64,000 bases of DNA from a phage (GCA_023802575.1 GCA_023802575.1_3947.1), one strand, 5' to 3'. Shown: positions 6,866 through 31,353, numbered from the stretch's first letter. Notes: generated from the sequence alone by a model not told the origin. Made by a program: numbers and translations.

Positions 6866-7237
6866 TTATTTTTTGAGAGTCGCTACAGCAGAGAACGTTG
6901 GTTTGTTATCTGTCTGTTGTTGACCACCATTATCAGGAGTCTTCTTAGTGTCTGCTGCAAGTGCTTTCATCTCACCTGCTGAGTGAGTAAAGATAGTTTT
7001 ACCGACCTCAATCATACTCTTGATGGTTACGTCATCTGTGTTTAACCCGAACTCTGCAAGCTTAGCCGCATCCCTTGTAACAATCGCCTCAAACAGCTTT
7101 GCAGCGAACTCAGCAGAATTATCAATGGTCAGTTGAGCTTTTACGAGTGAGCTTTTGTTACGTGAACCTTTCGGTCTTCCAGATGGGTTACCAGACTGGC
7201 CTTTTTTAAACTGGCCTTTGTTTGTTCTGTTTTTCAT
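6866..7237 (-). CDS. hypothetical protein (123 aa) with N-terminal GNPSGRPKG motif
   Basis: six-frame ORF; basic Gly/Pro-rich N-terminus KGQSGNPSGRPKGSRNK. Confidence 0.55.
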   Translation of the reverse strand: MKNRTNKGQFKKGQSGNPSGRPKGSRNKSSLVKAQLTIDNSAEFAAKLFEAIVTRDAAKLAEFGLNTDDVTIKSMIEVGKTIFTHSAGEMKALAADTKKTPDNGGQQQTDNKPTFSAVATLKK

Positions 7238-8447: not shown

Positions 8448-8456
8448 GTATAAACA

Positions 8457-8480
8457 GGGGCTGATGCCCCTTTCTCTATT
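8457..8480 (+). terminator. intrinsic terminator-like hairpin
   Basis: AGGGGC-TGAT-GCCCCT then T-rich tract. Confidence 0.5.
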
Positions 8481-8494
8481 TATAAGGATATTTA

Positions 8495-8866
8495 ATGAAG
8501 GCTAAGAGTGCAAAAGACTTTTACTGCTTCCTACAATCCTATATCCACTCCGTGGAGAATGGTGAAAGATATAATCTCAACGATGTTATTGCATCACCTT
8601 TAACATGGAGAATGAGTAAATGGCCTGAAGAGGATATTACACCAACTGCCGAACAACCCGCCTATAACCCAGAAATTAAACTCCCAGATTCAGATAAGTT
8701 ACTATACCCGATGTTCCACATTGTTGGGCTTGGTACGTTTCTTATGGATATCCAGTATGTAATTGGTAAGGGCTATAAAGTTGAAGGTATTGTTGTTAGT
8801 GATGTGTCTCCACAACATAAAGGCTATTTTAGATTAAACGCACGTTTAGAGGCTAAAAAGAAATGA
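8495..8866 (+). CDS. hypothetical protein (123 aa), paralog of the N-terminal domain of the next gene
   Basis: N-terminal similarity to 8863..9996 (K-x-x-DF, GxRY, W(P/R)..E(E/A)DI, MD(I/L)QY). Confidence 0.6.
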   Translation: MKAKSAKDFYCFLQSYIHSVENGERYNLNDVIASPLTWRMSKWPEEDITPTAEQPAYNPEIKLPDSDKLLYPMFHIVGLGTFLMDIQYVIGKGYKVEGIVVSDVSPQHKGYFRLNARLEAKKK

Positions 8867-9996
8867 TTAAAGCAAAGACTTACCCAGACTTCAAAGAATT
8901 TGTAAAGGGCTTCATTGCAAATGTAAAGGCTGGTAAGAGATATGATTTTAGAACATATCAAGAAGCTATTTTACCACTTACCTATAGTTCATATTGGCCT
9001 GAAGCTGATATTGCAGAAGTTGAGAAGTTTGATTACAAACCAGACTACAAAGTTCCATTTAGTGATGAACTCCTTTACAGCGTCGGCGCGCAGATGAGAA
9101 CTGCTGATTTCTTCATGGATTTACAGTATGCAATTATCAACGGTAAAGATGTTGACACAATTTACTGTGAATGGCTGGCAAGAGTGAAGCCATTCTCAAT
9201 GTTGAATGCTAAGCTGAAGGATGCTATTAAGCCACCAGCAATTACTCAGCAACCAACAGGACAAACAGTCAATGAGGGTGGCACACTTACTCTAAGTGTT
9301 CTAGCAACTAACGCCACTGGATATCAGTGGAAGAAGGATGGTGAGGATATCCCCAGTGCCACTTCTGCAACTTACACAAAACAATCTGTAGTACCTTCTG
9401 ACGCTGGCTCATACACTTGTGTTGTATCTGGAGAGGCTGGAACAAGCGTTACCTCAGATGAAGCAACAGTTACTGTGAACGCTTTACCAGTGATTACCAA
9501 ACAACCTTCTAGCCAGACCATCAATGAAGGTGGCAACATTAGCTTGGAAGTGACTGCCACAGGTGCAACGGGCTATCAGTGGAAGAAAGATGGCTCTAAT
9601 ATTCCTTCAGCTACAAACGCTACTTATAGCAAGTCTGGCGCACTACCAGCAGATGCAGGTTCATATACTTGCGTTGTAACAGGTGCAGGTGGTTCCGTTA
9701 CTTCTAGCCCTGCAACAGTAACCGTTAAAGCACTTCCTGTAATCACTCAACAGCCAACTAATCAAGAAATCACTGAAGGTGAGACATTGACACTCAACGT
9801 TGTGGCAACAGGTGCGACAGGTTACCAGTGGAAGAAGGGTGAGGAAAACATCCCAGACGCAATGACTGCAACTTACACCAAAGAAGGTGCAACTGCTGCT
9901 GATGCAGGAAGCTACACTTGCGTAGTGACTGGTGCAGGTGGCTCTGTAACATCTAATGCGGCAACAGTTACAGTTAACCCAACAGGGGAGGCATAA
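8863..9996 (+). CDS. protein with N-terminal domain plus three tandem Ig-like repeats (377 aa)
   Basis: three ~80-aa repeats each with GATGYQWKKDG...DAGSYTCVVTGAGGSVTS...ATVTV; DNA-level tandem repeats ~9230-9990. Confidence 0.65.
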   Translation: MIKAKTYPDFKEFVKGFIANVKAGKRYDFRTYQEAILPLTYSSYWPEADIAEVEKFDYKPDYKVPFSDELLYSVGAQMRTADFFMDLQYAIINGKDVDTIYCEWLARVKPFSMLNAKLKDAIKPPAITQQPTGQTVNEGGTLTLSVLATNATGYQWKKDGEDIPSATSATYTKQSVVPSDAGSYTCVVSGEAGTSVTSDEATVTVNALPVITKQPSSQTINEGGNISLEVTATGATGYQWKKDGSNIPSATNATYSKSGALPADAGSYTCVVTGAGGSVTSSPATVTVKALPVITQQPTNQEITEGETLTLNVVATGATGYQWKKGEENIPDAMTATYTKEGATAADAGSYTCVVTGAGGSVTSNAATVTVNPTGEA

Positions 9997-10460
9997 TGCA
10001 ACTCTCAAGAAAAGGCTTAGAAGCCATTAAGTTCTTTGAAGGTCTGAAGTTAGAGGCTTACAAAGACTCTGCCGGAATCCCAACAATCGGGTATGGTACA
10101 ATCCGTATTGACGGAAAACCTGTTAAGATGGGTATGAAAATCACGGCTGGACAAGCTGAACAGTATCTTCTCGCAGATGTTGAAAAGTTTGTTGCAGCAG
10201 TGAACAAAGCTATCAAGGTTCCAACCTCTCAGAATGAGTTCGATGCACTTGTAAGTGAAACATACAACATTGGTATCACAGCTATGCAGGATTCTACATT
10301 TATTAAGCGCCACAATGCTGGTAATAAGGTAGGTTGTGCAGAAGCTATGCAGTGGTGGAACAAGATTACAGTCAAAGGTGAGAAGGTCACTTCAAACGGC
10401 CTGAAAAATAGACGTAGAATGGAAGCTAACATTTATCTTGACAGTGTATATCCAAAGTAA
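9996..10460 (+). CDS. endolysin, T4-lysozyme-like glycoside hydrolase (GH24-type)
   Basis: N-terminal EGLKLEAYKDSAGIPTIGYG catalytic region typical of phage lysozymes; 154 aa. Confidence 0.85.
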   Translation: MQLSRKGLEAIKFFEGLKLEAYKDSAGIPTIGYGTIRIDGKPVKMGMKITAGQAEQYLLADVEKFVAAVNKAIKVPTSQNEFDALVSETYNIGITAMQDSTFIKRHNAGNKVGCAEAMQWWNKITVKGEKVTSNGLKNRRRMEANIYLDSVYPK

Positions 10461-10470
10461 TATCTTCATA

Positions 10471-10494
10471 GGCTCCTTCGGGAGCCTTTTTTAT
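10471..10494 (+). terminator. intrinsic terminator
   Basis: GGCTCC-TTCG-GGAGCC followed by TTTTTTATTTT. Confidence 0.7.
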
Positions 10495-27795: not shown

Positions 27796-28905
27796 TTAGA
27801 TTTCACGTTTACGTTGAGAGATGAGTTCACCAGCAGTGCCAACGATAACATGTAGAGCTTCAGTCTTGCCATCCCATGCTTTCAGAACATTACGCTGGCT
27901 ATCAACGATAGCTGCAACTTCATAACGTGATGAACGCATTTTCATATCATTGTAATCAGTTGGAACAGATACAACATCTCGTGGGTGGACACGAACTTTC
28001 AGGATTGTATCACCTGAGAAGCTACGAACATAATCCCAAGCACCAACATGAAGACCTTGAGAGCAAGTCACGTTACGGTTATTATCAACCATCCAACGTG
28101 GCATCTCTACAATGTTACCCAAATCGTTAGGAACTTTGTAGGTGTGGGAGTCAACCAGCTTACCTTCACGAGTAGAGACTTTCTTCCAACCAATGATGTA
28201 ACCTTCTTCATCAATTTCAACATCAAGGTGAGATACAAATCCCCAAAGTTGTTCTACAGAATCTTTAGATGGGTTTTCCATCAGTTTTTCGAAGAACATT
28301 ACAAGTCGTTCAAAACCTTTATCACCAGTTTTCATCATGTGAAGAATACGGTCAACCAGAGTAGAACGCATCTCAACAGCACCGTAGAATAGCTTGTCGC
28401 CTTTGATTGTGATAGCACCCTGAGTGAAGTTTTCGATAGACTTACGAATGTTCATCAGTTCAAATGCTTTCTTGAACTCACCTTTCACAACATGAACTAC
28501 AATCTCTTGATAGTTCGGATGAGTAGACTCAACAATTTCAGATTCTGAACCATAAGTCATAATTACAGAATCACCAGTAATCATGTACTCAATCTTGTCA
28601 TCTTTCTGCATAGCTTCGTGCAGTTTATTTACTGGAGCTTTCTGTACAGTGTCTTTAACGACCTTTTCAACTGGTTTGCCAGCTTTCTTTTTAAAGGTCT
28701 TAGCAACTTGCTTCAAAGTCTTCGTAGCTGGTGTAGAAGTTGCCTTTTTATTCCCTTTTAGGGTTGCTTCATGACGCTCTACAGCACGACCAACTGAACG
28801 GGTTGAGGTGTTAAATTTCTGTGCAATAGCTGTTTTGGTCAGCTTACCTTCTTTTACCAGTTTGTAAATTTCTGCGTCAATCTGTGCTTTAGTTTTAGTA
28901 GTCAT
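27796..28905 (-). CDS. rIIB: rIIB-like protein (369 aa)
   Basis: immediately downstream and co-oriented with rIIA-like gene; size and position consistent; no motif-level confirmation. Confidence 0.5.
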   Translation of the reverse strand: MTTKTKAQIDAEIYKLVKEGKLTKTAIAQKFNTSTRSVGRAVERHEATLKGNKKATSTPATKTLKQVAKTFKKKAGKPVEKVVKDTVQKAPVNKLHEAMQKDDKIEYMITGDSVIMTYGSESEIVESTHPNYQEIVVHVVKGEFKKAFELMNIRKSIENFTQGAITIKGDKLFYGAVEMRSTLVDRILHMMKTGDKGFERLVMFFEKLMENPSKDSVEQLWGFVSHLDVEIDEEGYIIGWKKVSTREGKLVDSHTYKVPNDLGNIVEMPRWMVDNNRNVTCSQGLHVGAWDYVRSFSGDTILKVRVHPRDVVSVPTDYNDMKMRSSRYEVAAIVDSQRNVLKAWDGKTEALHVIVGTAGELISQRKREI

Positions 28906-28986
28906 CTTATTACTCTCTCTCTCGTTAGTTAATCAATCAATTTGTGAGGCTATTCTAAGGGGCTTTTAAGCCCCTTGTCAAACACT

Positions 28987-31353
28987 TTAATCGTAAATTG
29001 TTGTACCTTCTGGAACACACTTCACATCAAAGCCTAAGAACTTACTCACTTCAATAGGTGACACTTTATTCCAATCTAAATGAGAAAGCAAGAAGTTTTC
29101 TTGTTTTCTTTTTGAAAGGTAGTTTGTCACCTTAATGACCATGCGGTCACCAGCTTTCTTAATTTTCTTGTACAGCTTTGTATCATTGTCAAGGCATTCT
29201 TTCAAAGTTTGCAATCTACTAACAGTGTAAGTGTATGCAAACGGTGCAGCAACGTATTGGATTTTACCGAACATTGCCTCTACAGCCTCTTCATTACCTT
29301 CTAGGAAGATAGTTTTGTTTGTATCCCGTGAATAGCAATAACCACGAGAAATCTTCCTATTATTGAATGTAAAGTTTCTGGCAATAATCCAGCTACTTGT
29401 AAGGTCAAGAACACCATTCATGTAGATGCGTGTCATATACCTGTTATGATTAATCCAATGAACATCAGTTAAGCTGTCGTTCAAGAGCTTCTCATCTACT
29501 TCAATCCAGTCTTCTGGTATCTTTTTCCAATTTGCTTTTCGGAAAACATAAACTGTCTTTCCAATAACATTAGCAACTGACTTAGCTACATCTTCTGGAG
29601 ATGAGCAAAAACATCTACCATCAACTGTGTCACCAACTGCCTTAATATAAAGCTGAGGTTCTTCAATTGTGTCTAAGTCTTCTGACACCTCTTTGTATGA
29701 AGCTACAGATTCTGCTGGAACAGCTTTCCATAGTTTTACAACACCTCTCACAGCCTCTTTACGCTGATAATGATGCTCCTTATCAGACATTTTCACAATC
29801 TTTAACAAGCTTTTATCAAGTTTGTGTAGATTGATTAAATCATCTAACTCTTTTTCAGTCGAGAATACAAACACAATACCATTGTATCTGTGGAACAGGC
29901 CTGACTCGTTAGCGTAGTCTCGACATGCACCACGCAAGATTTGATTTCGTCCTACAGTCTTCTCAGTGCCATTTTTATTGCGACGGTCATTAATCACGAA
30001 CAAAAACTGTTCAATTTGGCTTTTACGCATTGCACCAAAGATATTGAACATACTTGCCTCTTGAGTGTAGGAAAGTGCTGTTGCACGAATCTTACTCTCT
30101 AAAGAGTTGAACTTGACATAAGCAACTGGGTCATAAAGGTAATCTACTTTAGGGATGTTGTTTCCGTTCCTATCAACCTTAATATTACCTTTACCGTCAC
30201 GCTCATAAATGACTGAGCCGTCTTCTGCGTAGATAATCCCGCGACGAATGTTTAGCAACTCTTCTTCCAGAGAATCAAGCTTAACGCCTCCCCACTCTAG
30301 CTTTGGACACACAGCATTAAACATTTCTCGTGAGTTCAAACGCAACTCAGCATAAGCCTGTGCAGCATCCATGAGTGTGGGCTGATTGTTAATCTTTTTG
30401 ATAACATCCTTTGTAATGGCTTCAGTTATCTTTTTAGTAGCCTCAATGATAACATTTTTTGTCGTGTCATTCATCTGCAATGCTTCACGAGAAGCTGCAA
30501 TAGCAACTGAACCAATAGGCATGTAGATGTTTACAAGGTCTACGCTCCTACGGAAAAACTCTGGCAATACTTTGAAGAAATCATCGCCAAGTAATGCTTC
30601 CATATTAACAGGGTAGGCAATGTTACCCATCACCACATTAAACTCTGTCCTGTTATCACTAGAACGCCAGCTGTGCTTATGAATCATGGCATCATAAACA
30701 CCTTCTTCACGGGCAATGACGTTCATATCTGCTAATACATCGTTGTACTCAATATTACTTTCTGGTTTTACAGTGAAGTATGAGTACACATTCCCAGCTT
30801 CTTCAAAGAACTTTGAGATACGGTGGTCAGCAACTGCCACACGTACAGCTAAACCATTAGGTTCTTTTGTTGGGTTAGTTGTCAGCTTAGTTACTTGAGG
30901 GATACCATTCTCAAGATAAACAGAGTACTTATTAACAACACCGTCAACATAACTAGATACTGTGAATGACTGAGCAATTGCAAATGGTGACTTTGAGCCG
31001 ATACCCATTGCACCAATGTAGTCATTAGAGTCGTTCTTCGTAGAAGCTCCATAGTTTAGGTACAGACTCATAACTTTATCATGAGTCAATCCAGTTCCAA
31101 AATCACGAACTTCGAAGTAAGGCTCAAAACGAGTAGGTAAATGCACATGGAATGGGATGTTCTCTTTTCCAGCTTCTTTCTGAGCATCCACTGCGTTACA
31201 TGACAGTTCACGAATCACTGCCCTTTCTTTAAAGGTGTATACACCAGAACTCAAAAGGCTGAACATCTCAGGTGTCATTGTAATCTGTGCTTGAGACGTC
31301 TCTAAAGAAGTTGAACTCTTAATCACTTCTGCGTGGTCATTTACCATGCGCAT
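28987..31353 (-). CDS. rIIA: rIIA-like protein with N-terminal GHKL/HATPase-like domain (788 aa)
   Basis: N-terminal RELSCNAVDAQ...GxGxG (AMGIGSK) resembles histidine-kinase-like ATPase fold found in rIIA; size ~T4 rIIA. Confidence 0.55.
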   Translation of the reverse strand: MRMVNDHAEVIKSSTSLETSQAQITMTPEMFSLLSSGVYTFKERAVIRELSCNAVDAQKEAGKENIPFHVHLPTRFEPYFEVRDFGTGLTHDKVMSLYLNYGASTKNDSNDYIGAMGIGSKSPFAIAQSFTVSSYVDGVVNKYSVYLENGIPQVTKLTTNPTKEPNGLAVRVAVADHRISKFFEEAGNVYSYFTVKPESNIEYNDVLADMNVIAREEGVYDAMIHKHSWRSSDNRTEFNVVMGNIAYPVNMEALLGDDFFKVLPEFFRRSVDLVNIYMPIGSVAIAASREALQMNDTTKNVIIEATKKITEAITKDVIKKINNQPTLMDAAQAYAELRLNSREMFNAVCPKLEWGGVKLDSLEEELLNIRRGIIYAEDGSVIYERDGKGNIKVDRNGNNIPKVDYLYDPVAYVKFNSLESKIRATALSYTQEASMFNIFGAMRKSQIEQFLFVINDRRNKNGTEKTVGRNQILRGACRDYANESGLFHRYNGIVFVFSTEKELDDLINLHKLDKSLLKIVKMSDKEHHYQRKEAVRGVVKLWKAVPAESVASYKEVSEDLDTIEEPQLYIKAVGDTVDGRCFCSSPEDVAKSVANVIGKTVYVFRKANWKKIPEDWIEVDEKLLNDSLTDVHWINHNRYMTRIYMNGVLDLTSSWIIARNFTFNNRKISRGYCYSRDTNKTIFLEGNEEAVEAMFGKIQYVAAPFAYTYTVSRLQTLKECLDNDTKLYKKIKKAGDRMVIKVTNYLSKRKQENFLLSHLDWNKVSPIEVSKFLGFDVKCVPEGTTIYD

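Follow-up and report, generated by a model that had tools for sequence, protein, structure and literature searches.

An Ig-repeat protein encoded next to the endolysin gene in Felixounavirus DNA is very probably the hexamer decoration protein, and a stand-alone paralog of its capsid anchor precedes it

Directly upstream of the endolysin gene in this phage DNA lies a reading frame for a protein with Ig-like repeats, and the N-terminal domain of that protein recurs as a separate small protein encoded immediately before it. What does the repeat protein do, does its position beside a lysis gene bear on that function, and what could be the role of the stand-alone copy? The original prediction for this locus listed Hoc-like decoration among its possibilities and laid its emphasis on a lysis-associated or envelope-binding accessory. 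We addressed these questions within the whole stretch of DNA that was analysed (64,000 nt, hereafter the window) and by comparison with related phages. The window is Felixounavirus DNA, from the non-structural part of a Felix O1-like myophage genome. It encodes rIIA/rIIB, RNR, exonuclease, DNA polymerase and ligase together with a cluster of 26 tRNA genes, and no structural module, major capsid protein included, was found within its 64,000 nt. The region from 8400 to 10500 matches 251 phage records, nearly all of them from Felixounavirus or other Ounavirinae; Enterobacteria phage ECP2307 matches best, with 96.7% across all 2.1 kb, and many Felixounavirus genomes are 92–97% identical to the window across this region. 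Hosts of the matching phages are Escherichia, Salmonella and Shigella.

The repeat protein is encoded by the middle gene of a compact three-gene unit (Table 1). Both upstream reading frames of the original prediction proved to be real, and its assignment of the downstream frame as an endolysin was borne out by the lysozyme family match. The first two frames share 4 nt (ATGA), and the stop codon of the repeat protein shares 1 nt with the endolysin start (TAATG). One terminator-like hairpin marks the upstream edge of the unit and a second closes it; the AYO145A annotation places a rho-independent terminator at the equivalent of the first and a terminator also at the equivalent of the second. A scan for sigma-70-like promoters returned 15 sites vs. 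16.3 expected from shuffled sequence, i.e., no excess, and placed no site between the upstream hairpin and the first gene. The order of the three genes, with overlapping junctions, was observed in 28 IMG/VR loci, in phage Bas63 and in ECP2307, the sole exception being one locus in which the first gene is deleted (L021), and it recurs in L032, an 87-kb contig that is more divergent. The neighbours in Bas63 match as well, with bas63_0125 upstream as the counterpart of the first gene, the endolysin gene bas63_0123 downstream and the same junction overlaps. Because of the overlapping stop and start codons and the flanking terminator-like hairpins, the three genes are probably co-expressed. The conserved adjacency to the endolysin supports co-expression and nothing more.

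Table 1 Features of the three-gene unit and its flanks (positions counted from the first nucleotide of the window)
Feature	Position	Strand	Remarks
Terminator-like GC-rich hairpin, AGGGGCTGATGCCCCT then T-rich tail	8456..8471	+	23 nt upstream of paralog start
Stand-alone CapBD paralog, phrog_4463	8495..8866	+	123 aa, without Ig domains; phrog_4463 E 1.4e-77
Hex-Dec, ortholog of Sf14 gp20 (very probable assignment)	8863..9996	+	377 aa; phrog_3995 E 1.8e-207, PDB matches
CapBD of Hex-Dec, aa 1-123	8863..9231	+	Arg79 and Arg107 kept
Ig-like unit A, aa 124-207, 84 aa	9232..9483	+	
Ig-like unit B, aa 208-290, 83 aa	9484..9732	+	Missing in two-Ig relatives
Ig-like unit D, aa 291-373, plus 4-aa C-terminal tail	9733..9993	+	Last unit in all relatives
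Endolysin, T4-type phage lysozyme, 154 aa	9996..10460	+	PF00959 E 3.2e-40, phrog_7
Strong terminator-like hairpin, AGGCTCCTTCGGGAGCCT then TTTTTTATTTT	10470..10487	+	Closes the three-gene unit

We identify the repeat protein, with high confidence, as the Felixounavirus hexamer decoration protein, which is called Hex-Dec in Bas63 and gp20 in Sf14. Matches to the chains modelled in both phages run over nearly the full length of the protein, with E values of 1.5e-297 to chain S of 9NCF (Bas63, or JohannRWettstein; 460 aa) and 3.8e-170 to chain S of 9C2D/9C3A (Sf14 gp20; 372 aa). The N-terminal capsid anchor (CapBD) on its own matches 9NCF_S and 9C2D_S at 6.3e-79 and 7.1e-70, and a search of the whole PDB with this domain at E values up to 10 gave sequence matches in 9NCF and 9C2D only. 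The observed domain anatomy, a CapBD followed by Ig domains, is the architecture reported for Hex-Dec in the relatives (PMC12609058, PMC11821841). Two arginines, R79 and R107, occur in the protein of the window and are invariant in 33/33 aligned CapBDs, this one included, and the domain evolves under a dN/dS of 0.044. The Ig part is acidic (pI 4.35). Overall, the 377-aa protein carries every sequence-level feature that defines the Hex-Dec/gp20 family.

The capsid location, monomeric stoichiometry and anchor residues of this family were established by others in Bas63 and Sf14, and its structural description in 2025 for these two close relatives, variable Ig number included, means that Hex-Dec as such is already known. 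In Bas63 it is an ordered monomer at the centre of the facet-edge, pentamer-proximal hexamers only (PMC12609058). Sf14 gp20 has the same hexamer-centre location and was found in virions by mass spectrometry; its anchor comprises the N-terminal 118 residues, with salt bridges between Arg79 and Arg107 and the major capsid protein residue Asp221 (PMC11821841). The protein is therefore present in the virions of relatives (PMC12609058, PMC11821841), and of the possibilities in the original prediction it is Hoc-like decoration that agrees with the cryo-EM and mass spectrometry data. The Ig domains are not resolved in the maps of both phages (PMC12609058, PMC11821841). Across felixounaviruses one to four of them are predicted, and in Bas63 more than 10 kb separate the gene from the structural module (PMC12609058). 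With its rIIA/B, RNR, polymerase and ligase genes and without structural genes, the window is consistent with the same position of Hex-Dec outside the structural module. In a knockout screen, Bas63 did without g124 on most hosts, and the need for the gene was greater on S17-1 (PMC11482910); polar effects of insertions in this gene on the translationally coupled endolysin may have confounded the S17-1 result.

Transferred to the phage of the window, these findings suggest the following arrangement. Once the T=9 head has assembled, every pentamer-proximal hexamer would take up one Hex-Dec monomer in the depression at its centre, giving one copy per asymmetric unit or ~60 per head. Binding would occur via the N-terminal CapBD of ~120 aa, which Arg79 and Arg107 presumably anchor through salt bridges with the major capsid protein at its Asp221. 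The three acidic Ig domains of I-set type (A, B and D) would then point outward as a flexible fibre. Judged from the analogous T4 Hoc, this fibre probably makes virions adhere weakly to surfaces such as host envelope glycans or mucus, or modulates aggregation. Under laboratory conditions Hex-Dec is expected to be non-essential.

Ig-like domains are able to bind carbohydrates, and the hex-dec gene lies directly upstream of the endolysin gene in the same orientation, with the 1-nt stop/start overlap in all loci. On these grounds the repeat protein could be taken for a partner of the endolysin encoded next to it, one that binds the cell wall or envelope and targets or regulates the enzyme. The endolysin, however, is a complete single-domain lysozyme of T4 type, and such enzymes of Gram-negative phages normally need no binding module. 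Furthermore, the N-terminal domain of the repeat protein is a capsid anchor with conserved arginines, distant relatives of this anchor have no recognizable lysozyme neighbour, and the orthologs were built into capsid hexamer density and detected in purified virions (PMC12609058, PMC11821841). A lysis accessory is thus highly improbable, being largely refuted by the cryo-EM of the Bas63 and Sf14 orthologs, and the endolysin adjacency emphasized by the original prediction, a conserved gene order with overlapping codons only, is no ground for reading a lysis function into Hex-Dec. A function in the tail, as given by the phrog_3995 label and most GenBank, PHROG and UniRef records and echoed by matches of the Ig part to PHROG families labelled 'major tail protein', is barely credible, since these are propagated labels with no experiment behind them, the tail-family matches are confined to the Ig domains, two independent cryo-EM studies put the orthologs on capsid hexamers (PMC12609058, PMC11821841), and the Bas63 paper explicitly calls the label a misannotation (PMC12609058). 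Identification as Hex-Dec has corrective value here, as the 'tail protein' label is wrong and UniRef gives the paralog the same one.

Hex-Dec of the window is close in sequence to its Bas63 counterpart (bas63_0124), with about 97% identity in the CapBD and 92–95% in units A, B and D; the Bas63 protein has four Ig domains owing to an extra unit C between B and D, which the protein of the window lacks. Sf14 gp20 comes from a Shigella phage of another genus (Mooglevirus) and shares with it the N-terminal CapBD, three Ig domains and both anchor arginines, whereas its Ig domains are only roughly 60–70% identical to those of the window; in the Sf14 virion it is the pentamer-proximal hexamer monomer detected by mass spectrometry (PMC11821841). 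Resemblance to T4 Hoc lies in a monomer at the hexamer centre (for Hex-Dec a location taken from the literature on relatives), in an acidic string of Ig-like domains on a small capsid-binding domain, and in being non-essential. Among PHROGs of Hoc-like head decoration proteins, the Ig part matches phrog_2973 (3.8e-42), phrog_4069 (5.4e-38) and also phrog_3945. The two proteins differ in that the anchor is C-terminal in Hoc and N-terminal in Hex-Dec (PMC12609058), and the published description further sets the Hex-Dec anchor apart as larger, pseudo-two-fold symmetric and of distinct topology (PMC12609058). Moreover, not all hexamers carry Hex-Dec. The adhesion analogy draws on Hoc, whose anchor domain is non-homologous (PMC12609058). 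T5 pb10 (PDB 5LXK, 8ZVI) has an Ig domain similar to those of Hex-Dec (E 7e-12 to 8e-12 for 5lxk_A and 8zvi_a), but a single one compared with three in the window, and a CapBD search with E values up to 10 did not return 8zvi_a, the chain of full-length pb10, so that homology of the anchors was not detected. Hex-Dec works like T4 Hoc and T5 pb10 and is a member of neither family.

The stand-alone paralog is the only piece of the locus still without an explanation, and we found no description of it in the literature. It is unmentioned in the structural papers on Bas63 and Sf14, the Sf14 supplement included (PMC12609058, PMC11821841); literature on Felixounavirus and Mooglevirus virion proteomics yielded nothing on it beyond these two papers, and the main text of the PhageMaP paper does not mention Bas63 g125. 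The paralogy itself, correctly recognized by the original prediction, is supported by about 35% identity to residues 1-120 of Hex-Dec with 23 invariant columns, by phmmer matches to the first 120 residues of the orthologs in the PDB, 9NCF_S among them (E 1.3e-12), and by cross-matches between the PHROG families of the two proteins at 2e-16 and 3e-16. No Pfam family matched the paralog. Its AF2 model (pLDDT 78, pTM 0.77) was matched by Foldseek to 9ncf_S and 9c2d_S (probability 1.00, TM 0.65) and to no further PDB entry at E values up to 0.001. A dN/dS of 0.12 indicates a real gene under purifying selection, and its presence in Felixounavirus, Mooglevirus and the divergent lineage of the 87-kb contig indicates that the duplication is old. 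A profile built from CapBD and paralog retrieved only 12 clusters from 1.84 billion representatives. In the distant clusters the CapBD is fused to other display domains (Big_2, Ig) or to a disordered tail, and these relatives are single-copy and lack a tandem paralog as far as their available DNA extends.

There is about an even chance that the paralog has left capsid binding and now serves a non-structural, dispensable role inside the cell, e.g., in interaction with the host or its defences or as a chaperone of Hex-Dec. Both anchor arginines are lost, the position of R79 being glycine in 32/32 paralogs and that of R107 mostly Q, H or N. The paralog also evolves faster than the CapBD, with a dN/dS of 0.12 vs. 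0.044 (0.08 for the endolysin) and identities among relatives that fall to 74% while those of the CapBD stay at least at 84%. Its gene carries a natural internal deletion of ~226 nt in one 87.5-kb genome (L021), the published virion models of Bas63 and Sf14 do not contain the protein (PMC12609058, PMC11821841), and small non-structural reading frames surround it. Against this reading, nothing positive points to any alternative partner, no Pfam family matches the paralog, and its tight coupling to Hex-Dec, kept up across genera, suggests a function connected with that protein.

That coupling, a translational linkage in all genera examined, would also suit a paralog that still binds the capsid or procapsid, either as an Ig-less plug for hexamers free of Hex-Dec or as a competitor of Hex-Dec that tunes the density of Ig fibres; candidate sites are the 20 true three-fold hexamers and the hexamers of the unexpanded procapsid. 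We consider such a role possible though doubtful. It agrees with a fold that is the same as that of the CapBD, with the 22 core positions conserved between the two families, with the purifying selection, and with the end of the paralog at the exact point where the Ig linker of Hex-Dec begins. It is at odds with the loss of the anchor arginines and with the partial deletion of the gene in L021, and in Bas63 no density was seen on the other hexamers (PMC12609058), nor is the paralog among the virion components in either structural paper (PMC12609058, PMC11821841). On the true three-fold hexamers, icosahedral symmetry would average out the density of a monomer. The more specific proposal that the paralog recognizes another capsomer state or site (procapsid hexamers or the 20 true three-fold hexamers), or modulates how many hexamers carry Hex-Dec, appears unlikely. 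If true, decoration of a T=9 capsid would here rest on two components, with a paralogous plug setting its pattern, and an effect on hexamer choice would be relevant to the question of how a decoration protein that binds as a monomer picks 60 of the 80 hexamers of such a capsid.

The repeat part of Hex-Dec is better defined. Pfam assigns three Ig-type stretches to the 377-aa protein (Ig_3 5.4e-33, Ig_2 2.7e-28, I-set 5.3e-25), and AF2 predicts three beta-sandwich domains with pLDDT >90 across residues 124-373, whose closest PDB folds are multi-Ig arrays such as titin I67-I69, Robo Ig1-4 (Robo1/2) and LRIG1. Structure prediction thereby upholds the Ig fold that had been proposed from the repeats. 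The CapBD was poorly modelled in the full-length prediction (pLDDT 31-66), as likewise remarked by the Sf14 authors (PMC11821841), and the model was not used for the anchor. At the DNA level the repeats had been described as near-identical units of ~240 bp, which does not hold. The units measure 252, 249 and 249 nt (9232-9483, 9484-9732 and 9733-9981) and are 67–70% identical in protein but only 61–65% in DNA. Third codon positions agree at 31–42%, which is near random, identical residues use the same codon in 33–39% of cases, and the longest exact DNA runs between units span 11–14 nt. Tandem Repeats Finder reported no array between 8000 and 10500 because the DNA repeats are too diverged, and a repeat search recovered only 33-nt fragments of 64–76% identity spaced 249 nt apart. 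The repeats are consequently old duplications held by selection at the protein level and not recent near-identical copies.

Ig number varies among relatives, as observed in a census of 28 IMG/VR loci and two GenBank loci; proteins retrieved by homology to the CapBD were nearly all single-Ig forms of 210 aa and are unfit for such a census. One Ig domain occurs in 4 complete loci (210–211 aa), two in 11 (294–298 aa), three in 10 and in the window (377 aa), and four in 3 (460–461 aa). The domains behave as orthologous cassettes with the layouts A-D, A-B-D and A-B-X-D. Unit X, the insert, is not the same in Bas63 as in two other four-domain loci (L005/L016; 61% nucleotide identity), which implies either two or more origins of the four-domain forms or their descent from an array with more units. 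The single-Ig forms are chimeras of the first and last units (A/D) with three distinct crossover points, near GYQWKK in L017, near ATYTK in L021 and near DAGSYTCVV in L020, so in-register recombination at conserved motifs recurs despite low overall DNA identity. The original prediction that this structure is prone to recombination therefore stands in its outcome, a copy number of 1–4 and three chimera breakpoints, whereas the reason given for it, near-identity of the DNA, does not. As read from these alignments, Ig number changes by in-register recombination between units that are ~63% identical in DNA, which adds a mechanism to the variable Ig number already published (PMC12609058, PMC11821841).

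The Ig part of Hex-Dec, the Hoc-like capsid hexamer decoration protein, varies in copy number among related loci. In three of these loci (L017, L020 and L021) Hex-Dec carries a single Ig domain, and each such domain is a chimera of units A and D, the first and last of the array (locus coordinates about 4370-4630). The point of crossover from A to D differs among the three genes and lies each time at a conserved motif, a pattern that indicates independent in-register deletions. The extra (third) Ig unit of the four-domain forms differs between Bas63 and two other loci (L005 and L016), with ~61% identity at the nucleotide level; the four-domain forms therefore had more than one origin or go back to an ancestor with a longer array.

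Phage orthologs aside, the PDB sequence that the Ig repeats of the window (9232-9993) match best is GhpA, a grappling-hook protein of Aureispira (9FLP, E 8e-68, 8 stretches), and eukaryotic Ig proteins were all far weaker matches. This places the repeats in a bacterial/phage Ig subfamily that has the motif GYQW...DAGxYxC.

The CapBD domain of Hex-Dec (window 8863-9231) was modeled poorly by AF2 in its full-length context (pLDDT 31-66), with an all-helical secondary structure that is at odds with experiment. The stand-alone, Ig-less paralog immediately upstream (8495-8866), modeled from a mixed alignment, reached a pLDDT of 78 and a TM of 0.65 to the experimental CapBD. These results are a warning about reliance on predicted models for this domain. 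Equivalents of the 123-aa paralog (P0045, P0058, P0069 and others) are named 'Tail protein' in UniRef, a label that was apparently propagated via the shared domain from mis-annotated Hex-Dec. In L021 (IMGVR_UViG_2706796742_000001), a complete, 87.5-kb relative, the paralog is destroyed by an internal deletion of ~226 nt beside an intact endolysin and an intact Hex-Dec with one Ig domain, so at least one natural genome can dispense with the paralog.

Upstream of the paralog (window 8456-8494), a terminator-like hairpin ends only 23 nt before the start codon, and no sigma-70-like promoter was found between the two. For its transcription, the three-gene unit of paralog, Hex-Dec and endolysin must use read-through or a non-consensus promoter.

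For the Ec67 retron, 'gene 123' of Bas63 is reported as a candidate trigger, with toxicity limited to the presence of the retron (PMC11482910). If genes in that paper are numbered by locus tag, as g124 (Hex-Dec) is, this gene is the endolysin adjoining Hex-Dec. The two genes overlap (TAATG), so an insertion in g124 could have a polar effect on g123 as well.

Features in the window and in the relative L021
Feature	Position	Strand	Remark
DUF2828 + DUF7788 protein, 471 aa	window 5369-6784	-	
DUF5681 protein	window 6866-7237	-	
Endolysin	window 9996-10460	+	ortholog of bas63_0123
rIIB-like (369 aa) + rIIA-like (788 aa) lysis-inhibition genes	window 27796-31353	-	
Paralog deletion site	L021 3808-4001		equivalent to window 8567-8792

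The DUF2828/DUF7788 and DUF5681 genes are transcribed divergently from the block containing Hex-Dec. The minus strand also holds 26 clustered tRNA genes (window 192-5203), some 3 kb upstream of the unit with Hex-Dec; such a cluster is typical for Felix O1-like phages.
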